A DNA stretch of 64,000 bases from an uncultured Nitrososphaerota archaeon (GTDB lineage: Archaea; Thermoproteota; Nitrososphaeria; Nitrososphaerales; Gagatemarchaeaceae), in NCBI GenBank assembly GCA_963718895.1, contig CAVRAG010000008.1, positions 1,120,001-1,184,000 on the forward strand, read 5' to 3'. The notes under the pieces are model-generated. The model was not told where the DNA came from. It did no database searches and saw nothing but the letters and a program-made list of their open reading frames with translations. This document shows, in pieces, positions 11,951 through 64,000 of the stretch; position 1 is the stretch's first letter, and each line of letters begins with the position of its first letter. Position numbers and translations under genes: made by a program.

Positions 11951-11970
11951 CAGTGAGGTATGCCCGCCGA

Positions 11971-11994
11971 GGGGGCGTAGCCTAGCCAGGTATG
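11971..11994 (+). tRNA. 5' fragment of a tRNA (possibly tRNA-Pro); probable att site, not an intact gene
   Basis: GGGGGCG-TA-GCCT-AGCCAGGTATG gives the acceptor 5' strand, U8A9, D-stem and D-loop GG. No anticodon arm or T-arm follows. Confidence 0.6.
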
Positions 11995-14942: not shown

Positions 14943-15482
14943 ATGTCCATGGAAACGAGAAGGACGAAAACGAAGACCTTCCGTTTTGACGTTGACTTGA
15001 TTGAGGCATTGGGGAGAAGCGCGAAGCGCGCACAAATGACTGAGAATGCTTTCTTGAGTGAAATGCTGAAAGATCGTGTTATGATTGACCCTCTCTTTCC
15101 AGCATTTGAGGAACTCAGGCTAAGCACTGACATGTTTCGTACTATCCTAAGTGCCACCAATGCAGATGTATTGGAAGCCGTAGCTTCGGAGACTGCGCAG
15201 AAGAATGCGCAGCTGATTCGCGAGCTCTATGAGAGCAATGACCGTGCCCTGACCTTACAAGAATTCATAACCGAAGTGCTAGCGAGCCATTCACATTGGT
15301 TCCACATCGAGGGCAACTACAAGTCGTCTCATCGTTCCATGACCTTGCGCCACACCTTCGGCTTGAAATGGTCAACTTTTGTCAGAGCATATGTTAGCAG
15401 TACACATGATGTCTTCTCAAAAGACAAGATCAAGATTGATGTGGCGGATCAATTTGTCCGGATAGAGTGGACGCCAACGTAG
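14943..15482 (+). CDS. Ribbon-helix-helix-type regulator with C-terminal domain (thaumarchaeal family)
   Basis: TKTKTFRFDVDLIEALGRSAKRAQMTENAFLSEML has an RHH pattern; C-terminal HTFGLKWS motif is shared with 4 other copies in the window. Confidence 0.75.
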   Translation: MSMETRRTKTKTFRFDVDLIEALGRSAKRAQMTENAFLSEMLKDRVMIDPLFPAFEELRLSTDMFRTILSATNADVLEAVASETAQKNAQLIRELYESNDRALTLQEFITEVLASHSHWFHIEGNYKSSHRSMTLRHTFGLKWSTFVRAYVSSTHDVFSKDKIKIDVADQFVRIEWTPT

Positions 15483-15696
15483 AGAGTTGAAGGACATAGT
15501 TACGCAACAGGCAAATCAAACGGTCCGGGCAATGATGCAGGTGGTCCAAGACTGCCTGCAAGTCGAAATCTCACTAACTAGTTGCGCCTAGCTGTCCTGC
15601 CTTGCATCCTCGACGCCAAGAACTCGCGTTCTTGCCAGACACATCGCGCCGAGCCGAGTGGGGCCACCAGACCTCTACTCGTCCTCTCGTAAGTTC

Positions 15697-15873
15697 ATGG
15701 TCGTTTTAGACTACGCGGCGTGGAACATTTTCGTGGCCATGGCGGGGGGCTTTGCGATTCTCTACATGGCAATGCTGATAATACTAAGTAGCGGCCCTGG
15801 TGAAACTCGCAAGCTGAAGGTTGCGCAAGACGATAATCCCTCCATACATGAGTTCTCCCCCACACCGGCCTAA
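15697..15873 (+). CDS. Small single-TM protein (copy 1)
   Basis: MVVLDYAAWNIFVAMAGGFAILYMAMLIIL...; a paralogue lies at 25530. Confidence 0.55.
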   Translation: MVVLDYAAWNIFVAMAGGFAILYMAMLIILSSGPGETRKLKVAQDDNPSIHEFSPTPA

Positions 15874-16003
15874 AGTCGTCTGAATTTGCAGGGTAGACGG
15901 TTCGAAGGTCCAAATGAGGTCCAGAAGCCCTGCAATCTGCGTCTCTTAAAACTCAGGTGAATCTGAGAGAAGGGAGGAAAGGTTTAGAAAAAAGGGCAAC
16001 ATC

Positions 16004-17056
16004 TTGACCGTCATGGGTGCCAGCGCTAGGCAGGTTCAAACTAGGAAGTCCATGCGCGAGGCACCCTTGAAAGTGGGACTTACCTACGACACGCGGGACG
16101 ACTTCAAGTTCGTCAGTGATGAGCCAGACGACTGGGATGCAGAGTTCGAGGTCTCAACGGCGATAGACGACATCGCTCATGCCATAGAAGACGGAGGTCA
16201 CGAAGCCGTCTTCATCGGAAGCGGCAGGAAACTGCTGGAGAACTTCCATCACTTCGAAAGCTCGGTCGACGTCGTATTCAACATAGCTGAAGGCTACTTC
16301 GGGAGAGCCCGGGAGGCACAGATCCCCGCCATGCTCGAACTGGCCGGGGTCCCCTACGTCGGTTCCGACAGCTACGCTCTCGCTCTTGCGGCGAACAAGT
16401 GGCACACAAAGGTCCTGGCACTGAACTACGGCGTCAGGACCCCGGCATTCGAGGTCGTTCACACGGCCGATGAACTCGACACACTCGGTCTGAAGTATCC
16501 GGTGATTCCAAAGTTGTGTTACGAGGGCAGCAGCAAAGGACTGAGAGCCGATTCGGTAGCCCACGACAAGATAGAGTTGACGCGCCTGACGCGGTATCTG
16601 CTTCGGTCGTACAAGCAGCCAGTGATAATCGAGGAGTTCATCGAAGGAAAGGAAGTCGACGTGCCGATGATCGGTACCTCCCCTTCGAGTGCGTTTGGCG
16701 TCGTCGGACTCACACTTGATGGCAGTCTCGACCTGAACGAGCGGTTTCTCACTTCGAGCATAGTTCGAGCCGACGGGTACGGGTTCAGATTCCCGCTGGA
16801 TGAACCGTATGTCGGAGAAGTGGAGAGAGGTGCGGTCAAGATTTACAATCTGCTGGAATGCAAGGATTTTGGACGGATAGACATGAGAATCAGCAGGGAA
16901 GGCACACCATATCTCCTTGAAGTAAACCCATACCCATTCCTGGGAAAGCACAGCAGCTTCAACGCGATAGCGGAATCGACCATCGGCTACACCAGGATGA
17001 TAGGGATGATCCTCGAAAGCGCCCTTCGCAGGTACAGCCTGAAGCCGGTGCCCTAG
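16004..17056 (+). CDS. ATP-grasp ligase, D-Ala-D-Ala ligase-like
   Basis: VFNIAEG, REAQIPAMLE, YEGSSKG, EEFIEGKE, GRIDMR and LEVNPYP motifs. Confidence 0.88.
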   Translation: MTVMGASARQVQTRKSMREAPLKVGLTYDTRDDFKFVSDEPDDWDAEFEVSTAIDDIAHAIEDGGHEAVFIGSGRKLLENFHHFESSVDVVFNIAEGYFGRAREAQIPAMLELAGVPYVGSDSYALALAANKWHTKVLALNYGVRTPAFEVVHTADELDTLGLKYPVIPKLCYEGSSKGLRADSVAHDKIELTRLTRYLLRSYKQPVIIEEFIEGKEVDVPMIGTSPSSAFGVVGLTLDGSLDLNERFLTSSIVRADGYGFRFPLDEPYVGEVERGAVKIYNLLECKDFGRIDMRISREGTPYLLEVNPYPFLGKHSSFNAIAESTIGYTRMIGMILESALRRYSLKPVP

Positions 17057-19538
17057 TCCAGGAAATGTATGTCGCAGGGGTAGTAGCCGAGCTCGTAGAA
17101 CCATTTCTGGGGGCGGTTTGTGAGAAGATCTGGTTCGACGTCTCGACATCCTTCATTCCCTCCGTTTCCTTCCCAAGTCTTGAGAGGATTGTCCCCCTCA
17201 GTCTCAGTCGCTTGCCATGGACGAGGGACGTGTCTCCTTTCCACTCGTTGGGAGGATACTTCTCGACCCATTCCAGAGCCTCACGATACCTCCCCATCGC
17301 CAGCAGGACGGTCGACAGATTGAAGGCGAAGTAGTCTTGGATCAGCGGTTCCCCCGACCTTTCGACGAGCGGAATCAACCTCGCCAAGATCTCGAAGCTC
17401 TCCGTGTACTCACCTCGCAAGCTGTAAATCATGGCGATGTTGGTGAGGATGCAGATTCTGTCGAAGTCCTCGGTTGCTTTGCTCTCGGCCTCGCTTAGGA
17501 CATCGTAGGCATTGTCGAGCCGCTTCATCTGCGTGTAAACGATCCCCAGGTTGTTGAGAGGGGCATCTATCTCATAGGAGTCGATTTTGCGGTATATCAC
17601 AAGCGCCTGGGACAGGTTGGACTCTGCAGACTCGAATTGGCCCAAGTACAGTTGTTCTGCACCCATGTTATTGAAGGACCGAGCCAGCTCGATTGTTGAG
17701 TCGCTCTGCCTGAATACATTGATGGCTTGAGTTATCATGTCCACCGCCCGTCTCGAATCATAGATCATCCCAGACTTCCTCTGCAACACCGCCAACCCTG
17801 TAAGGTCTCTCACGAGATTGAAGGCCTTCTGACTCTCCCCGTAGTAATCCTTCGCCTGCTCATGGTTTCCGAAGTGGTCGGCCAAGGTGGACAGGATTGA
17901 ATACGTCGAACCCCTCATGTGCTGATTCTGGGTCTTCTCGAACACTCGTGCTGCGACTTCGAGGTGTTCTCTTCCTCTCTCGCTGGCTTCGATGGTGCCG
18001 ATAAAGCGGCAGCACTTCCCGGCCAGAAGGTGAGATTGAGCGAATTGCTCAGTCTCGAGAGTGCATCTCTTGATCGCGGACAAGGAGTGAGCAAAGGCGT
18101 CGCCGAACAACCCGCTCGAGAACTCTGCGGTTGCGAGCTCCAGCAAGAGTGAGGCTTCCGAAAGGGGCTCGATCCTGACCTTCCCACTCTCGACCATGAA
18201 CAAGCAGCTTCGTAGGTAGTTTACCGCACTGCCGAACGAGAGGTTCCTTGTCGACATCTCGGCAGCGTTCCGATACAGCGGAAAGGCGGTGTAGTAGTTG
18301 CCGGCCATCTCATAGTGATAGGCCGTCAGTTGCGGTTCGTCAGCGGTCCTTCCAATCCTGTCGTAGTATTCGGCAACTTCACGGTGCTGGTCCCTTGCGA
18401 GGGAGCCTTGAGAGGCGAGGATGACCTCTCTGGTGGTATCGTGGTCGAACTCGCAAGAGTCGGGCGATTCCGTCTCACGGATGATCCCGTAATCAGAGTC
18501 GACCTGTTCGAGAATGTGCTTCACCTTCAGAGCTTGGAGGCCCGAGATGAACGCCACATCCTCGACCGAGAACCGCCTTCCCAGCATCGCGGCGTAGTCC
18601 AGCACCAGACGAGCGTCTCCGCTCTCCTTCTGAATCTGCAAGAGCTGGTTACCCACGAAACTCCGGAGTTCAGCGGGCAAAGCCTTCGGGAGTGCGTCCG
18701 AACCTCTCATCTCCTTGATTGTCTTCACGATGTACAGGGGGTTGCCGCCGGTACGCTCGACGAGCACGTTCACGTTCCGGCCCTCGATCCTCCCTCGGGA
18801 CATCTGCTTGACGAGTTGTGCGGACGAACGAACGCGGAGCGGCTCGAGATGTACGAAGGTTGAACCGACGTGACTAGCCATCGCTTCAATTATCGCAGCG
18901 TTACCCTTTTCTCGCTCAAACGTAGCGCTCTTCTCCCTGAAGCACAGGACCGCCAACACTCTAATCTTGGCTATGTTGTCGATCAGGTAGCCGAGGGCCT
19001 CAAGGGAGGAAGAGTCGAACCTCTGGGCGTCGTCGAAGAATGCCACGATGGGCCTCTTCTTGGAGACCTTCTCGAACAACGCGAAGAAGACGTTTCTTAC
19101 GTAGAGGGAGTTCGAGATCTGTCTCACGTCGGTCGAGGACAATCCTGCGACGCTTTTGGCTAAGTTGACCCCGATGTCAACGTACTGGCCAATCGAAGGC
19201 ATTAGCACAGCGAGGTTCGCCAGTGTCGAAGCCACCTGTTTCCCTCGATCGCGGCTGGTCGTGGTTTTGAGGAGCCCTTCCAGCATCTCTCCCAGGGCCG
19301 AATAGGGGCCCGTCGCGTATTCTCGGCCCACCGCCCGGACGACGAAGGCAGACTCTTGATTCACCTCTCCGAGGAACCTGGCTGCAAGCGCTGTCTTCCC
19401 CACCCCGGGCTCGCCGTTAATGAAGACCGCCCTTCCGATTCCTGTTTGAATAACCTCAGCGAGAGCTTCGTTTAGAATCGAGAGTGGTTCCTCTCTGTCG
19501 ACGAAGATGTCCTCGGTTTCCGTCCGCACTCTGGACAA
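17053..19538 (-). CDS. STAND-class (AAA_16-like) P-loop ATPase with C-terminal TPR array; probable 1-nt frameshift near 17120
   Basis: FVDREE, Walker A GEPGVGKT, Walker B FFDDAQ, GGNPLY, FDHD, then TPRs (ARSFNNMG, LNNLG). The shifted frame ends NRPQKWFYELGYYPCDIHFLD* at 17053. Confidence 0.85.
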
Positions 19539-19626: not shown

Positions 19627-20058
19627 ATGCTTCAAAAAATCGAGATTCGGCCGGTTGAACTGTATGACGCTGTTCCGCTCCTGCGGCTGGAAGCGAGATG
19701 CTTCGGGATGAGGTATTCGTCGAATTCGCTGTATTACTGGCGACCGATACTCGATTACTGCTGGGCCTACAAGGCCGCCCGAGACGACGAGATTCTTGGC
19801 GGAGTGATAGCAATGCCGACTCGGCAAGGGAAGGTGTACATCAACTCACTTTTCGTTCATCCTCGAATGCGAGGGTTGGGCATCGGGTCCCAACTCTTGG
19901 GAACAGTCCTCGGGTTGCCTGCCATTGGTTTCGTTCTGGATGTCAAAGTTGACAAGAGACGACTAATCGAGATGTACCAGAGGCATGGATTCAAGATCAT
20001 TAGGAACGAGACAAACTACTACCTGGACGGGTCGGACAGAGTTGTAATGGAAAGGTAG
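19627..20058 (+). CDS. GNAT N-acetyltransferase (RimI-like)
   Basis: LFVHPRMRGLGIGSQLL acetyl-CoA motif A; MYQRHGF; NYYLDGSD. Confidence 0.9.
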   Translation: MLQKIEIRPVELYDAVPLLRLEARCFGMRYSSNSLYYWRPILDYCWAYKAARDDEILGGVIAMPTRQGKVYINSLFVHPRMRGLGIGSQLLGTVLGLPAIGFVLDVKVDKRRLIEMYQRHGFKIIRNETNYYLDGSDRVVMER

Positions 20059-20121
20059 CTGTAAGACTTGGGTTCATGGCCCTTCATCTTCGCGGTTCAA
20101 TGCAAACGCGTTCGAGAGACC

Positions 20122-20484
20122 TTACCCAAGTTTCCCGTCATTTTCGGGAAAGGTATGGCTGTCATTGCAACCGTTGGACGGCGGTTCGGTGTTTATCCGC
20201 AGTGAAGCTGGGTTGGATTTCCAACTAGCGCGCCGGTGTGGATTACGGCCGCCGACAAAGACTAGCATCATCCCAAGAATACTAAGGGCGACGGAAAGTC
20301 CAAAGACCCAGCCAGAGTAGGCAAGACTTGAGACTGAGCTTGGCCCGAGGTAACTTTGAGGAGAGCTCCGGAGGCTGACCGATCCCGTCGCAACTACCAA
20401 AGCGAACAGGATCATGGCGACACCGCAAGCCAACTCTAACTTCCAACTATACTCGTTGATTCCCGTTTCGTGTTTCAAACTCAA
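20122..20484 (-). CDS. Two-TM membrane protein
   Basis: Two hydrophobic helices; TATA-like TAAATA upstream. Confidence 0.5.
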   Translation of the reverse strand: MSLKHETGINEYSWKLELACGVAMILFALVVATGSVSLRSSPQSYLGPSSVSSLAYSGWVFGLSVALSILGMMLVFVGGRNPHRRASWKSNPASLRINTEPPSNGCNDSHTFPENDGKLG

Positions 20485-21444: not shown

Positions 21445-21999
21445 TTGCCCATGGAAACGATAATCCACCACGCCGCAGAACGCCACCAACTTCACCCTGT
21501 TCATGTCAACTTCAAGATTCCGTCAGAAGTGCACAACTCTCTGGAGAGAGCGGCGATAGACGATAAGTTAAGTTTGAATGCACTAGTAAACCAGATTCTC
21601 TCTAGGTATGTCTCGTTTGAGAAGACAACGGTCGACGAACCCGTCTTAATTCCAAAGTTTCTATTCGCCGAACTGATCAAAGCTTTCCCGGAGGAGCAGG
21701 CCAAAGCGGCAGGGGCGCTGTTGGGCGCCAAGCTAAGACAGGATTTTGCTTTCCATGGGATCAGACAAGACTCCCAGGCGATTCTGAATTTTCACCTTCG
21801 GCAGATGGGTGCGTATTCAAGATGGTATAATCTTGAAGTGTCGAGGACCGACGTTCGAATAAGAGCCGCTCTCTTGCATGGGTATGGTCAAAACTGGTCG
21901 GCATTCTTGACCCAGTACTATCAATCAGCCATAAAGGCCGTCACAGGCGCAGATCCTCGAATAGAACATGAAGGCGGCACCATAGTAATCACATTCTGA
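21445..21999 (+). CDS. RHH-type regulator (same family as 14943..15482)
   Basis: VHVNFKIPSEVHNSLERAAIDDKLSLNALVNQILSRYV is RHH-like; HGYGQNWSAFL tail motif. Confidence 0.75.
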   Translation: MPMETIIHHAAERHQLHPVHVNFKIPSEVHNSLERAAIDDKLSLNALVNQILSRYVSFEKTTVDEPVLIPKFLFAELIKAFPEEQAKAAGALLGAKLRQDFAFHGIRQDSQAILNFHLRQMGAYSRWYNLEVSRTDVRIRAALLHGYGQNWSAFLTQYYQSAIKAVTGADPRIEHEGGTIVITF

Positions 22000-22260
22000 G
22001 CGAAGAAGCAGTTATTCTGACTCTCATCCCAATGGTTTCTGCGGCGCAGGGCCCGATTGACTTGGTTGAGCCTTGGGATTCCTAGTTCGAGTATTGGGAA
22101 ATCTAGTGTCGGCGGCACAGGGACGCCGATCGCGAGGATTTCAGCCAAACTGTGAACCGTAGCTAGAGCCGGTCGAGAAGGCTGATATGCCAACTAGCGT
22201 CAAGACCAAGGACAGGGCGGACGAATGCGGCCTTTCTGTCAACCGTCCCACTGAATCAGG

Positions 22261-22581
22261 CTAGTTTCCATTTTCGTGCCTAATCGTGAAGTACTTTTGC
22301 TGAAGGTTCTCTAACCGAGAGAGCAGTTCTAGACCGTGCGAAGTGATATACATCTTGGTCCTAGAATTATTGGTCTCGGCGCGCATGAAACCCTCGAGGA
22401 TCAGATGGTCGAGCGTGCTTCTGAGCTCCTTCTCCTCAGGCCTCAAGCCTGACCAGCCATAGATCTCATCGATCAGCTCCCATTCATCCATTGGTTGACT
22501 GCGCAAGGCCGTCAGGATGACTAGCTGCAGGTTGGCTTTCAACCACTTTAAGCGTATTCTGAACTGCGTCCAGTTCATCAT
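22261..22581 (-). CDS. PadR-family winged-helix regulator
   Basis: LVILTALRSQPMDEWELIDEI...YITSHG pattern. Confidence 0.75.
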   Translation of the reverse strand: MMNWTQFRIRLKWLKANLQLVILTALRSQPMDEWELIDEIYGWSGLRPEEKELRSTLDHLILEGFMRAETNNSRTKMYITSHGLELLSRLENLQQKYFTIRHENGN

Positions 22582-22607
22582 GCTCCCATCACCGAATGCC
22601 TTCTGAG

Positions 22608-22973
22608 TCAGCGGACGTGGTCTGCCTGAGGACCTGTGACGCTGAGGCGCAGCTGCATGAGACTGAGCTCATCCCTCCACCCCTTTAGCAAGATGCGGCC
22701 AAGAGGCGTCAATCGTAGGGAGGTCCTTCTTCCGTTCTTCACCTTTGTAATCGCCCCGCTGCCTTCCATTGAGTCAATCACAGGGTACACCTGTCCGGGG
22801 CTGAGGAGGACCTCGAAATCCACGCACACTGTGGCGATGATGTCATAGCCGCATACGTCTCGTCTATCGACGTTATCCAAGATCAGGTATTCAAGCATGG
22901 AATTGACAAGGCCCCGCCTGTAACGTCTTACCATCAATTCGACGCCGTCGCTTCCTATCGATTGGGCCAACAA
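22608..22973 (-). CDS. PadR-family winged-helix regulator
   Basis: LIL...CGYDII...LSPGQVYPVIDSME...LTPLG pattern. Confidence 0.85.
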   Translation of the reverse strand: MLAQSIGSDGVELMVRRYRRGLVNSMLEYLILDNVDRRDVCGYDIIATVCVDFEVLLSPGQVYPVIDSMEGSGAITKVKNGRRTSLRLTPLGRILLKGWRDELSLMQLRLSVTGPQADHVR

Positions 22974-23021
22974 TCCCGATACCTATGGCTGAAATGACAA
23001 TGCACCTGTAATAAACGTTTC

Positions 23022-24152
23022 ATGAAGATAGGAGCGATTATTAGGGTATTCGTTAACGTCTTGCCGTTGAGCGAGAGAATCGCTGACCTAGTTCAGGCGA
23101 TTAACCGCATCGGGATAAAGAACGTCGCTGCGCTGTCACGCATGACCAGCATGCCCAAAGAAACCATCAGGTATATGCTCAAGAAGAGGTTCCCCGTGCT
23201 CGACCTTGCTGTCGAGACCGTCTTCAACTTGGGTGAGCTGGGCCTGCAGCGGTACTCTGCAACCTTCAAATTCGCGCCGAACGCGCTGCCGCACGCCAAT
23301 TCAATCCTCGACAAACTGGCGAGCGTGGCCTTCCTGACATACCGCTCGGGGACGCTCCTAGAGCCAACGCACGTCGCGCTTTTTGCGGTCCCAGTGCTCG
23401 TTGAGGAAGAGTTCCAGTCGTTTCTGAGAGGCCTCGTCGACGCAGGAGTCCTGAAGGGCGTGGAGTCCAAGAGGTTGGAGTGGGCGAGGAACCCAGAGTT
23501 GAAGTGCGAGTACTACGATTTCGACTCCGGACACTGGAACGTAGACTGGAAGGCGGTCGGGTCGCATCACGAGGCACCCCCCTCTCCAATCGTCGTGGAC
23601 CAGCCTCGCCTGAAGCCGGCCATCGATCGGAGCGACATCCTCCTGATTAAGGAGCTTGAGGCAAGTTCGCTGAGGAACCTTGCGGAGATCTCGGGGAAGC
23701 TCAAGATGAACGCCGTGACCCTCAGGTGGCACTACAGGAAACACGTGCTGCCAGTCATCTCTCATCACAGGGTGCGTTGGATCCCGGCGCGCGGTGGTGA
23801 CAAGTCCAAGGTTGTGGGTGTCTCATTCGGCTTCAGCCAGCTTACGAGGTCGCAGATCGGAAAGGCCAGACTGCTATTCAACAATTTTCCTTTTGCCTGG
23901 TACGAGGCGGGGTCGCGCGACGGGAGCTACAGGGCCGACTTGGCGATTCCAATCAACGAGTTGGTCCCTTCGCTCGAGTTCCTGAACGCAAGGTTGGGCG
24001 AGATGTCGCCTCCTCCATGGAAGACTTACGTCCTCGATCTCCCATCGAGCATGCATTACACTGTTCCCTACGAGAACTTCACCGAGGAAGGGGGGTGGGC
24101 CTTCGACCCCGAGGAGGCCCTGAACTCGATTCTTTCAGTCGCGAGAGTCTGA
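23022..24152 (+). CDS. Tandem HTH / Lrp-AsnC-like regulator with two HTH+effector halves
   Basis: HTH1 NVAALSRMTSMPKETIRY; HTH2 IDRSDILLIKELE...LAEISGKLKMNAVTLRWHY. Confidence 0.75.
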   Translation: MKIGAIIRVFVNVLPLSERIADLVQAINRIGIKNVAALSRMTSMPKETIRYMLKKRFPVLDLAVETVFNLGELGLQRYSATFKFAPNALPHANSILDKLASVAFLTYRSGTLLEPTHVALFAVPVLVEEEFQSFLRGLVDAGVLKGVESKRLEWARNPELKCEYYDFDSGHWNVDWKAVGSHHEAPPSPIVVDQPRLKPAIDRSDILLIKELEASSLRNLAEISGKLKMNAVTLRWHYRKHVLPVISHHRVRWIPARGGDKSKVVGVSFGFSQLTRSQIGKARLLFNNFPFAWYEAGSRDGSYRADLAIPINELVPSLEFLNARLGEMSPPPWKTYVLDLPSSMHYTVPYENFTEEGGWAFDPEEALNSILSVARV

Positions 24153-24176
24153 GAGCAGCATCGTCAGTCTGTCATT

Positions 24177-24320
24177 CTAGGTGGGGCCTCCTCCGATCGG
24201 ATCTCCGTCGAGCCCGCCGATGTGAAGCGGGAGGAGCCCGTGAGTCGCGAGGGTGATCGCGACCAATCCAAGGACGAGGGGGACCCACAGGTGGAGGTTG
24301 TTCCGTAGCGATAGTCTCAT
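24177..24320 (-). CDS. 47-aa peptide with a signal-like N-terminus and Gly/Asp/Pro tail (not in ORF track)
   Basis: MRLSLRNNLHLWVPLVLGLVAITLATHGLLPLHIGGLDGDPIGGGPT*; TAATATT 21-27 bp upstream of the ATG; GC3-rich codons. Confidence 0.65.
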   Translation of the reverse strand: MRLSLRNNLHLWVPLVLGLVAITLATHGLLPLHIGGLDGDPIGGGPT

Positions 24321-24577
24321 GACCGCGGGGTGCCCCGACGAATATTAGCACACTATTCAGACCGAAGTTACTAAATTCGTAAAGTCCAGCGGATAACGTA
24401 AGTCAAATTCGATGACGTTGGCGGTTGGCCTTCTTTCCTGCCGACCGAAAGCCTCCTACAACCATGCAATAGTTGTGGAAAATGTGGCGGGTCGGCATGT
24501 CAACTTTATCGTTCGCACGATACGCATGTATGTCTGTGGTGTAAACGCTTATCTCAGCCTCTCATCCTCCGAAAGAT

Positions 24578-25474
24578 GTGAGCGACACAGAACTCTTGGT
24601 GGGGGAGGACGCCAAGCTCGTAGTTCTAACCGAGGTAGAAGAGAAGGTTCTGACGATAACCGCCAACGTCACGCCAGAAAGCGTGGGCACTGACAAGATA
24701 AAGAGGGAAGGGACGAAGTTCTTCGCTCCCGGAGGCAAGTTCGGGGCGTTCCTCGGCGCGGTCAAGCCCGACGACATCAAGGTCGCCAGGAAGACGGCCG
24801 TGCTCCGCCCTTATTGGCGGATATCCGGAGGCTTTGCCTGCAGGTACCTGAGACGGCACAGCCACAGGCTCTCGCTGGAGAACGATGTGGAATCTGTGAC
24901 CATCTACGGAAAGCCACAGTCCGTCACCGGCGAGAGGTTGCGATTGAGCGACATGCTCGCCAAGGCCGGTGCGAGCACAAGCTTGGGTTACGGACCTGTG
25001 AAGCTGTCGCTTGGCCCTCTGGAGAGCATTATGAAGGGGAAGATTTCCTCTGTACTCGGCAGCAAGGATACCGAGCTGGAGCGCAGGGTGGAGGTTGCCC
25101 TGCCCGACATAATCGAGAGCGCAGTATTCACCTACACGGGGCGGTTCCTGTTCGACGCGACTCAGGGAACGGAGAGCAAGGAGATCTTCGACCTTCTCGA
25201 AGGCAAGGACCTCATTCCAACGAGAGAACCTGCGCTCAAGAGGACAGGGCTCGTGCTGGAGCCGTCATTTACCAGGGAGGAAGTTATCGAGGAGGTCAGG
25301 AAGCGTCTAGCCAAGAAGCCGGAGGAGACTCCCCGCAGGGTCATCGAGCAGGAATTCGTGTTGACCGAGCTGTGCCTCATATACCTGCCCTCGTACGACT
25401 TCACGCTGGAGTATAACGGAAAAATGAGGACTCTGCGCCTCGATGGCGTGACAGGCGAGTTCAAGGCGAGTTGA
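24578..25474 (+). CDS. Conserved archaeal hypothetical protein
   Basis: 298-aa ORF with host-like codon usage; C-terminal IYLPSY...LDGVTGE. Confidence 0.7.
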   Translation: MSDTELLVGEDAKLVVLTEVEEKVLTITANVTPESVGTDKIKREGTKFFAPGGKFGAFLGAVKPDDIKVARKTAVLRPYWRISGGFACRYLRRHSHRLSLENDVESVTIYGKPQSVTGERLRLSDMLAKAGASTSLGYGPVKLSLGPLESIMKGKISSVLGSKDTELERRVEVALPDIIESAVFTYTGRFLFDATQGTESKEIFDLLEGKDLIPTREPALKRTGLVLEPSFTREEVIEEVRKRLAKKPEETPRRVIEQEFVLTELCLIYLPSYDFTLEYNGKMRTLRLDGVTGEFKAS

Positions 25475-25529
25475 CCAAAGAATGGGAGATATGGACGACC
25501 TAATCATGATTCCAAGCGCTTTGATAATC

Positions 25530-25652
25530 ATGGCGGTCATGGATTACGCGGCGTGGCAGATTTTTGTGACAGTCGCTGGAGGCTTTGCAATCCTCTACAT
25601 GGGCTTGCTGATAATACTCGAAGTGGCGGTCGTCGCAAAACTCGTAAGCTGA
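25530..25652 (+). CDS. Small single-TM protein (copy 2, 40 aa, possibly frameshifted tail)
   Basis: MAVMDYAAWQIFVTVAGGFAILYMGLLIILEVAVVAKLVS*, homologous to 15697..15873. Confidence 0.5.
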   Translation: MAVMDYAAWQIFVTVAGGFAILYMGLLIILEVAVVAKLVS

Positions 25653-25783: not shown

Positions 25784-26224
25784 ATGATTGTGGTGCGAAC
25801 GCTAATGAAGCCTCAGCATTATGCTCACGTCTCGTTGCGAGTTGCTTTCGTCGTCGTAGTCTCATTAGTGTTGATGATGCTCGGAATGGTCGTAGCGCCA
25901 TTGGTGTCGGCTTCCTCTAATCAGTCCCTCCCGTTATCGCAATCCACGGGGCAAGCACAATTCCGGTTCAATGATACGGTCTCTGCCGTGGTGAATCTGG
26001 TATACGCGACTCCAATACCTGGGGCGGGACAACCCCACTCAAATGGGACAGTAGTCGTCCCAAACGCGATCTCATCACCTGCGAACACGTCTGCCCCATG
26101 CGTGCCGAGCTTGGCATATCCAAGGTCGAATAACCCTACGGAATCCACGGGCCCACGAACCGCTTGCTCTTCTGGAGTCGCTCTCCTCACAGTGGTTGGA
26201 GTGTGTTGGAGCGTCCCCGATTAA
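25784..26224 (+). CDS. Putative secreted/membrane protein
   Basis: Long hydrophobic N-terminal helix; may be truncated. Confidence 0.45.
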   Translation: MIVVRTLMKPQHYAHVSLRVAFVVVVSLVLMMLGMVVAPLVSASSNQSLPLSQSTGQAQFRFNDTVSAVVNLVYATPIPGAGQPHSNGTVVVPNAISSPANTSAPCVPSLAYPRSNNPTESTGPRTACSSGVALLTVVGVCWSVPD

Positions 26225-26771
26225 GGTGAAAGAATGGGACTTTCTCTCAGGAAACTATCAGTCGAATTTGGAATCGAGAGACCGGTCTTGCTCAAATTGA
26301 AGGCCGAATTCGAGAGGGAAAAATAGCGTAGTCTGAACTACGAGCGTCTCAGGATAAGGTTGCGGAACATGCGGGATGCAAGATTAGAGAATAGGCCTGT
26401 CGTTCAATTTCAAAGAGAGCGAGTATCAAGCAGGGCAAGATTGATGAGACAGATTTGAATCTGAGGCTAATGCGACTGGGTACAAGAATTGAAATAGGCA
26501 GGTTGGCATGCTGCATTCAACGGGAGCAGCGACATAGCCTAGTCTGCCCTCTCTTTCGAGAGACCTACCCCAATCTTCCGACAGCCTATACTACGAAGGA
26601 ATCAAGAGGAATGACGACATAGGTTCGGTAAGCTTCAAGTGGAATTTGCTGCAAGAACACATCTTGTTCCAGCACGTTACAGTCTTAGAAGCAGCAGGAA
26701 AGACATAGAGCAAAATGGAAGGACTATGCTAGTGTCGAGTATGAACCGAAGAAGAGACCACAGCTAATCGC

Positions 26772-38836: not shown

Positions 38837-38857
38837 CGATATGAACTCATTTTGTGA

Positions 38858-38877
38858 TTAATAGTTTTGTCCGAACG
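38858..38877 (-). promoter_or_regulatory. Repeated 20-bp promoter box CGTTCGGACAAAACTATTAA
   Basis: Identical at 61738-61757; 18/19 match at 49641-49659; partial at 49711-49722 (+) and 50321-50338. Confidence 0.65.
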
Positions 38878-40701: not shown

Positions 40702-41029
40702 TGAGGCATCATTAGACGGCCACCTTCGAACCGACCCAAGTCGTCGAGTGACCGGACTGCCGATGTCCCAGAGTTCTCAGCGTGTCACATATCTCGGGTG
40801 ATTTGAACACACAATCTTCGGCTCACCCGGCACACTCCTCCGCCCTCTCGCTCGAGAGACCTTATCCCACTTTTCTAAGGTTTTCTGATAAGGTATGTCG
40901 GTCATTGCAACTTTTGTACGGCTAATCGGCACTTATGCTTCTCTGATTGGGTAGAGGCGCCACCGGGGGGGGAATTTGCTAATCTGGCTCCGCTTTCAGT
41001 TCCCGCTAACGTGCTTGTTCTTGAACCAC

Positions 41030-41395
41030 TCAGAGAGTCTGATATCGAGATCTCCATTGAACGGGTCTCCACTAACTCGACGGTCGAGAGCGAGGAGGAG
41101 AGAGTGACCGTCGAGTTACCCACAGTCTCCACCATGGTGAAGTTATCGTGATAGTCACCGAGTACGTTCCGGAGACGTTCCCCACGACCTGGAGCAGCCA
41201 GCCTCCCTGCGCGACCAGGACGGCGCCGTCGTACGACCGGGAGTACGAGTATGAAGTCGTATTGGGCCCGAGCAAGACTGAGGGAGTCACCGCGAACTCA
41301 TTGCCGAGGTAGAGAGAGTCGTCCGGATTGGAAGGTATATAGCCAATCGACGAAGAGATTTAGTTCGCGTATGCGTCATATGGGTCCTTGAATGG
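41030..41395 (-). pseudogene. Degenerate duplicate of part of the 61763..64000 surface-protein gene
   Basis: TPSVLLGPNTTSYSYSRSYDGAVLVAQGGWLLQVVGNVSGTYSVTIT / MVETVGNSTVTLSSSLS nearly matches ~63610-63960. Confidence 0.85.
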
Positions 41396-49606: not shown

Positions 49607-49740
49607 CCCTGCGTCGAATGCTTGTTGCGTTGCTTCTTGATTAATAGTTATGTCCGAACTCAACCTTCTTCTTGGTACGACTTCCAGTACCGCTCGAAGT
49701 ATCCAGAAACCGTTCGGACAAAGGCGTATATCGAAGCAGG

Positions 49741-50265: not shown

Positions 50266-50409
50266 CCGTTGCTGGCTGATTGCGAAGATTTCCGAATGAG
50301 GAATGCCTGAGCTTCTTGATGAGTAGTTCTGTTCGAACTACGCCCTGTTGGTACCACAGCAATAACGGGAGTTGAGAGCATCGGCTCCCGAGAGGTCGAG
50401 AGTAGATTT

Positions 50410-61700: not shown

Positions 61701-61762
61701 GTGAAGACCTCTGCTTGAGGAGAAGCCTGAATTCTGTTTAATAGTTTTGTCCGAACGAACCG

Positions 61763-64000
61763 CTAACGCGCTGGCCTGAACCCTCGCGAGATTCTTCCTA
61801 GAAAATAGAGGCCTGCCATCAGAAACCCGAAGAAGGTCATGAGGAAGTACTCCTCGTCCGGCGGCGGGGGTATGTGAACGACGTTATCGTAGGTCTGGAA
61901 AACGCTGCTCACCCCCCAAGAATTGCTAATCCCGAACTGGTAAGTCCCGTTCACGCTCATCGGGAACGACAGCCCATAGAATCCGAAGTACCCGGAAGGG
62001 GATGGAGGTTCCGTATTCGGTGTCAAAGAATCGTTGACAATCAAGTTCCCGTTCGGGTCCTTCACCCAAAGGCTCGTCACCCCTCCGGTCTGAGGCCCTA
62101 GCATCGCCAAGGCCTCGAAGTTCGTTTGCTGTCGCTGTATGTTCACCAAGCTCCCGCCTCCCCCGCCGAGGTTCGCGTAGATCGTGCTGTTCCCGCCGTA
62201 GAGGAAGCCGTAGACGCTGCTGAGGTTTCCGGGTTCGTATGTGACGGGTGAGATGAAGCTCGGCGAACTCCCGTTGTAGTCCCATGCGAGGTATGGATTG
62301 TTGGGGAGGGTCAGGCTGAAGTTGAGGGGAAGCGCGACCAGCTGCCTCAGTTGGTCCAGGTAGTATCCATCTACGCTCTGGAACGGGAGAGACGGAATCA
62401 GGGTCCTGTTAACGAGGAAGGATGAGAAGGCGTCGGCGACGGTGTACGAGTAGCTCCCGGACGCGCCTGTCACGGTGATGTTAAGGTACGGCACGGTGGT
62501 ATCGTTCGTCATGGCGAGGTTGGTGTCGTTGAGGAGGAAGACCCACCTCCCTCCCGAAGAGGAAACGGGCTTGAGGTTCATCACGTTCGAATAGGCGGGG
62601 AAGAGGTCGTCCTCGAAGGCCTTCGCTACCTGTTGATTTGAGCCGAATGTATGGTTCAGCGACGACAGCAGGTGTAGGTTGAGCGGGTCAGGCGTCACGA
62701 GGGAGATGTTGACGGAGTCTGAAGGATCGAGGCCCGAAGGCCCGTAGGTGAAGACCGAGATGTATCCACTATAATAGAAAGGCTGGTAGAGGTACGAAGT
62801 ATTGAACAGCCCGTAGTTGCCTCCTGCGAAGCCCTTTGAGACGGCCAACTCGGTGACGTTGAAGTATTCGAGCCCCTGGCCACTGTAACCCTGAATCCGT
62901 CCTAGGTCTGAGCTGAAGTAGAACTTCACGACCCTGTGCGCGAAGGTGATGACAGGATAGGTCGTGTTAGTGGTCCGGGTCCCCAGGCTAGTGGACGTCT
63001 GGTTCCAGAACGAGAGGTCCTGACTGATGTCGCCCGAAATGAGGTTTGCTTTCACTCCCCAACCCACTGTCGTGAAGTTGAACGAGTTGATCAAGGCCCT
63101 CTCGCGGGTATCGTTTACTGCCAGAATCCCAGCCGTGTTGGCATCCCCTCCATACGAGTAGCCCGGGTTGTTCCCGTCGTACCTTACGAGCGTGACGAAG
63201 AGCCTCTCGTATGCGCTCGAGTTCTTCGAGTTGTACCCCATATACGTGAAATATTTGAAATAAGGCGCGTAGTTGACGACCGCGAAAGGCTGTTTCTGTG
63301 TCTTTGAGCCGAGCAGGGCGCCTTGGTAGTCGAACGCCTTCGCTGTCATGGTGATCTTCGAGGTTCCTGTGGTGTTGGCAACCGTGAATAGGAAGTGCCC
63401 CGTGGAGCTGGAGTTCTGGTAGGAGGTCAGTTTCGCAAAGCTCGGGTCGAACTGGGGCTCGACGACGACCTTGATGTCCGGGCGCTGCTGCATGAAGAGG
63501 AAGCTGTAGCTGTAGTTGACGATGAACTGGTCGTCGTGGTAGAAAGAGCCGTCGGGGTTACGGAGAACCTGATGGAGCGAGTTGGTGACGTTGCTCAGCT
63601 CAGTCTGGAAGGTCAGTTCGAATGCCCGGGTTTCGACCGACTCGCTGGCCGAGAGGGAGGAGGAGAGAGTGATCGTTGAGTTGCCTGACGTCTCCACCAT
63701 GGTGAAGGTCGCCGTGATCGTCACGGAATACGTCCCAGAGACGTTCCCCACGACCTGGAGCAACCAGCCGCCCCGCGCGGCGAGGACGGCGCCGTCGTAT
63801 GACCACGAGTAGCGAGAAGGATGTCGTGTTGGGCCCGAGCGAGACCGAAGGGGTCACTGCGAACTCGTCCCCGAGATAGAGCGAGCCGTCAGGATTCGAG
63901 CGCATGTAGCTGACCGACGAGGAGATGCAGTTCCCGTAGGTGTCGCAGGGGTCCCTTGAGCCGCTGGGTGAGTGGACAAAGGCAAGTGGGAGTATCGTCA
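61763..64000 (-). CDS. Large surface protein with C-terminal TM anchor (start outside window; probable 1-nt frameshift near 63813)
   Basis: Beta-rich with many N-x-S/T sites; internal repeat SNPDGSLYLGDEF / RNPDGSFYHDDQF; PPPP plus TM plus basic tail. Confidence 0.75.

Follow-up and report, generated by a model that had tools for sequence, protein, structure and literature searches.

Does a small open reading frame (ORF) beside an archaeal regulator encode a peptide to which that regulator responds? The question arises at one locus of the DNA analysed here, a stretch of 64,000 nucleotides (nt) from contig CAVRAG010000008.1 of an uncultured Nitrososphaerota archaeon, which we call the window (G000:C8:1120001-1184000, G000 being the archaeon's own genome). 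A preliminary description of the window had proposed a peptide-signalling module, made up of a 47-residue peptide ORF, a convergent regulator with two helix–turn–helix (HTH) halves and two PadR genes divergent from the regulator. We find a real, conserved regulator–peptide cassette that is apparently undescribed: a literature search found no description of it, with most subscription papers and bioRxiv supplements beyond its reach and an earlier mention possible. Three features carry the argument (aa, amino acids; dN/dS, ratio of nonsynonymous to synonymous substitution rates):

24177..24320, (-) strand: 47-aa pre-peptide gene (ORF and translation; dN/dS over 9 sequences)
23067..24152, (+) strand: tandem Lrp-fold regulator, HTH-RAM-insert-HTH-RAM (AlphaFold2 model and structural matches)
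24341..24382, (-) strand: ~40-nt peptide promoter element (conserved in near loci; matrix scan of the same genome)

The 47-codon ORF is a genuine gene, located at the position first described, and its TATA-like TAATATT sits at leaderless spacing (24347-24341, -27 to -21 from the ATG). The product has a basic N-region, a hydrophobic core (~residues 11-26), a conserved HG (27-28) and a tail ending DGDPIGGGPT. Nine close copies give a dN/dS of 0.38 for the whole ORF, 0.25 for the tail and 0.54 for the leader, and pairwise differences at codon positions 1/2/3 number 317/242/534, the pairs not being independent. By dN/dS the ORF evolves as a protein gene with the tail as its constrained part, so the expected coding-type conservation is borne out. 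We regard the ORF as a gene because it is intact and convergent in relatives, because of this dN/dS and because a promoter element is conserved before it at fixed spacing. The window peptide has no match in Pfam, NCBIfam or PHROGs, its top score against the Atlas (0.81) is a lead only, and Rfam gave no match within 21900-24700.

The ~40-nt promoter element is likely to act as an operator of the peptide gene. It comprises site 1, TTAC-N7-GTAA (24382-24368), and site 2, TGAATAGTGTGCTAATATT (24359-24341), which contains the TATA-like TAATATT. Lrp/AsnC proteins bind semi-palindromic operators near promoters; the conserved TTAC-N7-GTAA is a candidate for such a site, to which the regulator would bind. 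At 48 of 56 near loci the element stands at a constant distance before the peptide ATG; among the other eight, four contigs end too early, one locus has a misplaced anchor (a regulator with an internal stop), one is decayed, and two, representing one sequence, have no peptide. When the genome was scanned with a matrix built including its own copy on contig C4, the two peptide genes scored 60.4 and 57.9 and the next best site -1.9, which places the element before these two genes only. Two upstream boxes had been pointed out earlier; both are present, at 24365-79 and 24400-11, and only the first is conserved. The 24400-11 box was rejected as a conserved site because it lies outside the stretch common to relatives, which ends at ~24389. 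A sigma-70 promoter scan, a model not applicable to archaea, gave chance-level output.

Similarity to relatives spans ~22411-24389 and defines a 2.1-kb PadR–PadR–regulator–peptide cassette with changing neighbours. Named relatives of the regulator are Nitrososphaerota archaea, including Candidatus Gagatemarchaeum, and the Atlas look-alike clusters are archaeal. Twelve genome loci hold a regulator relative (44-81% identity), and each carries the convergent ORF, intact in 11; in the twelfth (L011) the peptide ORF is frameshifted, and the locus holds further frameshifts. The GDP/GG.P-tailed ORFs that the preliminary description had mentioned beside such regulators do occur in these relatives. The pairing was then expressed as a micro-ORF rule: an ATG or GTG start, 10-110 aa, the opposite strand, a stop -10 to +60 nt from the regulator stop, and four or more Gly/Pro among the 12 C-terminal residues, applied to distinct loci with at least 250 nt downstream. 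The rule was passed by 62 of 74 regulator loci, compared with 63 of 837 long ORFs of the same genome and 1 of 34 other ORFs within the same loci. Of 301 genomes sampled across the phylum, 67 yielded the regulator; of 121 sampled from the order, 41 did, a tally that includes one unpublished genome, G397, no locus of which was used. There was no regulator relative in the viral contigs, plasmids or phages searched.

Comparison of the peptides indicates that a tail of ~10 residues is their conserved working unit. It occurs behind a hydrophobic leader, as in the window, bare, or repeated two to five times with or without a leader. Bare tails of 11-16 residues with a ribosome-binding site are found in distant families, and the close relatives L074-L076 carry a leader-deleted 15-aa form, MNSFDGDPGGPGGPN, behind the same promoter. 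In all 24 distinct multi-core precursors the matched units are identical at the five free positions of the search pattern, which is blind to units that break its fixed positions; different lineages have different units. At the DNA level, 18 multi-core precursors vary at 120 third-codon-position columns; the zero variation at positions 1-2 of the repeats is largely by construction. One such precursor belongs to the same genome (L018, contig C7): ~230 nt downstream of its own regulator paralogue, a 62-aa ORF, which lacks a hydrophobic leader, repeats the unit DPIGGFGPS five times without change. The regulator at that locus is divergent from a TFB-like gene. Altogether the genome has six regulators with six different tails, five clear and one doubtful. 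In a quick tree with long branches flagged, tails track regulator clades and leader type switches within clades. Two cassettes of one chromosome, L001 and L002, share an identical stretch of 1,985 nt, running from the stop of the second PadR-like gene through the tail, and differ by 20 nt in leader codons 7-27 (14 codons, 8 non-synonymous).

The convergent ORF is open over 23022-24152, as described earlier; its proposed start at ATG 23022, giving 376 aa, is doubtful. The regulator likely starts at TTG 23067 (361 aa), because the alignments of 5 of 12 relatives begin at query residue 15-16 (the others between 6 and 23), the 45 nt before this TTG align with promoter DNA of five relatives, and residues 1-10 have a predicted local distance difference test score (pLDDT) below 50. 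The AlphaFold2 model (pLDDT 88.7) has the order HTH-RAM-insert-HTH-RAM, and single Lrp/AsnC proteins align to each half (Z 7-8, ~140-147 residues), in keeping with the two HTH/Lrp-like halves seen initially. The top structural match is NirDL 4czc (Z 16.8, root-mean-square deviation 4.4, 287 aligned, 10% identity). By sequence, the window regulator has no match in Pfam, NCBIfam or PHROGs, and a search of the PDB returned none; a paralogue gives weak LrpA/LysM profile matches. The family counts 121 representatives at E <= 1e-30. Among 117 full-length distant relatives, conservation is 0.43 and 0.50 in the HTHs vs 0.34 and 0.31 in the RAM domains. The most conserved parts are the HTHs and structural Pro, Trp and Gly, not catalytic residues in the RAM domains, and an HxYxR motif is present in 2 of the 117, the window's regulator not among them. 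Because the HTHs are the most conserved regions, we read the regulator as a DNA-binding protein and not as an enzyme.

The remaining features of the locus are the upstream genes of the cassette and the likely boundary of the element that holds it:

22608..22973, (-) strand: PadR-like winged HTH gene A, 121 aa (PF03551 E 8.8e-6, just below cut-off)
22261..22581, (-) strand: PadR-like winged HTH gene B, 106 aa (weak HTH_45/TIGR03433 matches)
22974..23066, no strand: putative divergent promoter region (back-to-back TATA-like elements and a central TTTCAYRAAR; alignment of 6 copies)
11970..11994, (+) strand: likely left attachment site of a ~60.3-kb integrated element (perfect 25-nt repeat of a tRNA-Trp 5' end)

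Two divergent winged HTH genes are indeed present, and the name PadR fits them weakly: gene A reaches 26.1 bits against a PF03551 cut-off of 27, and the HTH_45/TIGR03433 matches of gene B are sub-threshold. A relative at L079 scores 35 on PF03551; gene B has no PadR match. At all 12 genome loci gene A is seen upstream of the regulator; gene B is seen at 10 of the 12, not being printed for L007 and L009. The stop of gene B is the left end of the duplicated cassette, where the identity of L001 and L002 begins.

The window's cassette likely sits within a ~60-kb conjugative-type element integrated at tRNA-Trp (G000:C8:1131970-1192326) that reaches beyond window position 64000. The left repeat matches the tRNA-Trp 5' end at G000:C8:1192302-1192326, a tyrosine integrase ORF overlaps the element's attachment site, the GC content falls from ~0.60 to 0.50 at 12 kb of the window, and VirD4-like, ArdC-like and TFB-like genes are carried; the suspected location on a mobile element thus stands. 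The right end is less sure, because just past it come a further integrase (C8:1192496-1193692) and a longer but imperfect repeat (137 nt, 84%). In a sister clade the cassette occupies a stable, recurring chromosomal cluster with HTH_45, MscL, V4R, MASE3, DUF835 and Ig-domain genes. No tRNA-linked attachment repeat was found around the C4 copy. This second close regulator copy (L014/L015, G000:C4:238.8-239.9 kb) has a frameshift near residue 220, which may be an assembly error.

Several further observations concern the element and the flanks of the cassette. A 26-nt motif with a TTAATAGTTTTGTCCGAAC core recurs at window 38852-38877, 49635-49660, 50314-50339 and 61732-61757, at least some copies directly upstream of element genes, and possibly marks a regulon of the element. 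A repeated, non-coding-looking segment lies at 20109-20196, 26555-26579 and 40849-40936 and also at C8:465080, and diverged internal duplications pair 41053-41387 with 63618-63954 and 15695-15785 with 25528-25618. A gene cluster at 14943-19538 and 19627-20058 encodes an ATP-grasp (D-Ala-D-Ala ligase-like), an AAA+TPR (STAND-like) and a GNAT protein (TPR, tetratricopeptide repeat). Closer to the cassette, a 184-aa gene (21445-21999) with a weak HicB match of the ribbon–helix–helix type and several genome paralogues also flanks the cassette in L002, L004 and L051, and a 146-aa membrane ORF (25784-26224) has counterparts beyond the peptide gene in L001 and L002. Both are candidate targets.

How might such a cassette work? 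We lean towards the tail being the ligand of the double-Lrp regulator, the two forming a ligand–receptor pair. In our proposal, the hydrophobic N-half would route the precursor to the membrane, where it would be cut near the conserved HG, and the tail is probably exported. The released tail of 10-20 residues would re-enter cells, perhaps via a family-5 peptide-binding ABC system; the genome has eight above-cut-off matches to family-5 solute-binding proteins, which are generic. Lrp proteins bind amino acids at their RAM domains and NirDL binds siroheme; here the tail would bind the two fused RAM domains and switch DNA binding by the regulator. The two HTHs would recognise the TTAC-N7-GTAA site(s) of the peptide promoter and so close a feedback loop, which may activate or repress, either sign being compatible with the sequence data, and the divergent PadR-like pair would relay the output to neighbouring genes. 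Leaderless forms may work within the cell or take a different way out. When regulator residues 16-376 and peptide residues 17-47 were folded together, the result scored 0.20 against a mark of 0.32, which speaks neither for nor against binding. That this copy conveys a cell-to-cell signal comes just short of an even chance. The fullest version is a little less probable again: a widespread, RRNPP-independent archaeal quorum sensing by peptides, with a fused Lrp pair turned peptide receptor, orthogonal channels and multi-core precursors, and a 60-kb element that counts its carriers via the PadR-like pair. The preliminary description had imagined a non-homologous analogue of the bacterial systems controlling the element. 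The receptor fold and the integrated element agree with this; the chromosomal copies of the sister clade and the commonness of leaderless tails are not covered by it. Since a search for the promoter element ahead of the PadR pair came up empty, control of that pair or of the mobile element is suggested by linkage alone.

A number of points weigh against peptide signalling by the cassette. The promoter element was found neither before the PadR pair nor before the regulator. Among 149 neighbouring ORFs scanned (75 of 75 and 74 of 128 listed ones), no exporter, protease, importer or modifying enzyme is conserved next to the cassette. The co-variation of peptide and receptor is mixed: in partial Mantel tests of tail vs RAM given leader, p is 0.007 and 0.004 within clades and 0.39 pooled, the leader also tracks RAM in one clade, and shared ancestry may explain the pattern. 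The identity of L001 and L002 could reflect ordinary recombination or assembly homogenisation. The micro-ORF rule was written after the peptides were seen, and the loci are related. Among loci sampled later at the level of the order, just 11 of 27 pass it; two of these passes (L100 and L115) look like chance ORFs, L100 having by eye another, 40-aa hydrophobic ORF, and a third (L093) repeats the peptide of L006. Of the 16 failures, 11 belong to a single regulator subgroup, in which no convergent micro-ORF reaches 10 aa, so the Lrp-pair fold does not need an adjacent peptide. Among close relatives, L078/L088 have no peptide gene, that of L073 is decayed and that of L056 has a stop just inside the tail.

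Since the order-level failures mostly cluster in the peptide-less subgroup, the pairing belongs to several clades and not to the whole regulator family. The window's clade is among the former; all nine of its rows in the regulator tree have a peptide. The peptide-less subgroup (L103, L108-L111, L113-L119, L121) offers a natural control for peptide-binding residues. At L092 the peptide start codon is lost. Together with L056, L073, L074-L076 and L078/L088, this locus may represent intracellular, 'cheater' or orphan-receptor states.

Of the alternatives to an exported ligand, the least improbable, itself unlikely, is an intracellular or membrane-tethered partner: the tail would bind the regulator in the same cell, with no cell-to-cell signalling. 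In the tethered version, the leader-bearing tail is anchored and sequesters the regulator at the membrane and the bare forms are soluble co-regulators, giving an autoregulatory or bistable switch. The bare forms of 11-16 residues suit this explanation, as they are common in distant families and also arise inside the leader-bearing clade, and so does the missing conserved exporter or protease. Residues before the HG are not always small, either: L004 has EMHG, a poor fit to a small-residue cleavage rule. On the other hand, identical multi-core repeats with variable spacers are most simply read as more copies of a diffusible product, and, as a general topology rule, a basic N-terminus followed by a single hydrophobic helix would normally put the C-terminal part, here the tail, outside the cell.

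Less probable again, the Lrp protein may sense a small molecule and control the peptide gene as a mere target, with a peptide that never binds it and serves as an antimicrobial, surface or membrane micro-protein. The dedicated promoter element, confined to the peptide gene, the existence of a peptide-less subgroup and the mixed partial Mantel covariation agree with this reading. It leaves unexplained that every paralogue has a tail of its own, that tails go with regulator clades when leaders come and go, and that regulator and tail are identical between L001 and L002 when the leader has diverged. We consider it very unlikely that the regulator is a NirDL/AhbAB-like enzyme, with the peptide as a substrate resembling those of ribosomally synthesized and post-translationally modified peptides (RiPPs), or that it is a tetrapyrrole enzyme beside which the peptide gene lies by chance. 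Over its whole length the regulator matches NirDL best in structure, and multi-core precursors are typical of some RiPPs; against this stand the 10% identity, HxYxR in only 2 of 117 sequences, conservation that falls on the HTHs and structural Pro/Trp/Gly rather than on catalytic RAM residues, and tails that share no modifiable residue across families. The 149 neighbours hold no conserved heme, heme d1 or RiPP genes, and radical SAM genes occur beside 3 of 22 distant loci (L032, L034 and L035, one family) and beside none of the near loci scanned. That the ORF is an untranslated shadow of a terminator or antisense RNA is next to impossible, given a dN/dS of 0.38 with changes concentrated at third codon positions, identical repeats that vary synonymously, and a conserved start and promoter spacing.

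How archaeal cells signal to one another is an open question: a 2025 Haloferax paper, in its accessible text, counts three true archaeal cases, whose signals are small molecules or unknown, and a single known gene (PMC12240190), and our literature search found no description of gene-encoded peptide signalling of this kind in archaea. The cassette provides a named candidate ligand, receptor and operator, which makes archaeal signalling testable, and the paralogues of the same genome are specificity controls. If ligand binding holds true, gene-encoded peptides would join amino acids as effectors of Lrp-fold proteins. Most of the peptide genes fall below the length that gene callers accept.

The cassette appears to be a kind of its own, because it departs from every family considered in that family's defining features. 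Its logic most resembles the RRNPP(A) systems of Bacillota and their mobile elements (Rgg/SHP, ComR/ComS, PlcR/PapR, AimR/AimP). In both, the gene for a cytoplasmic DNA-binding protein adjoins that for a small pre-peptide, in which the C-terminal part is the unit that is variable and constrained, and both have several channels per genome, leaderless variants and copies on mobile elements; some Rgg/SHP pairs are also convergent. Here the adjoining peptide gene is not universal in the wider regulator family. The receptor is non-homologous, as had been supposed: its model is an alpha/beta (HTH+RAM)x2 protein with no TPR Pfam match, that is, two HTH and ferredoxin-like RAM units in place of a TPR core. 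The host is an archaeon instead of a member of Bacillota, multi-core precursors are common, and peptide binding is a proposal. As far as the available text of PMC12700828 goes, an RRNPP(A) receptor core is defined by 5 or 9 TPRs, RRNPPA systems include leaderless peptides, and a DPG motif is widespread in the AimR and subfamily-08 peptides of Bacillota. Near-clade tails (L006-L010, L057-L092) contain DPG too, a resemblance only, as the receptors are unrelated.

With Lrp/AsnC proteins (PH1519/FL11, ST1022, LrpA, AsnC) the regulator shares the HTH+RAM fold, present twice. Typical members are single oligomerising units of ~15 kDa with amino acids as effectors, whereas two unequal units with Trp-rich inserts are fused here in one chain of 361-376 aa, which lacks a Pfam or NCBIfam match and is paired with a peptide gene. 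NirDL/AhbAB also have a fused or paired double-Lrp fold and are marked by a conserved HxYxR; the window's regulator differs in its 10% identity, the lack of a PDB sequence match, the absence of HxYxR and the lack of heme genes nearby. AhbA/B are themselves annotated as Lrp/AsnC family in the accessible part of PMC3942049. If our preferred reading holds, in which the tail is an exported ligand, the cassette would share density-linked control by a secreted cue with archaeal quorum sensing. The cases in the available text of PMC12240190 (the Methanosaeta carboxy-acyl-homoserine lactone and the Haloferax disk-forming signal) involve small-molecule or unidentified signals, and none there is a gene-encoded peptide with an adjacent receptor. 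The cassette would then follow the logic of RRNPP with an unrelated receptor; if binding fails, it would be a new Lrp variant.

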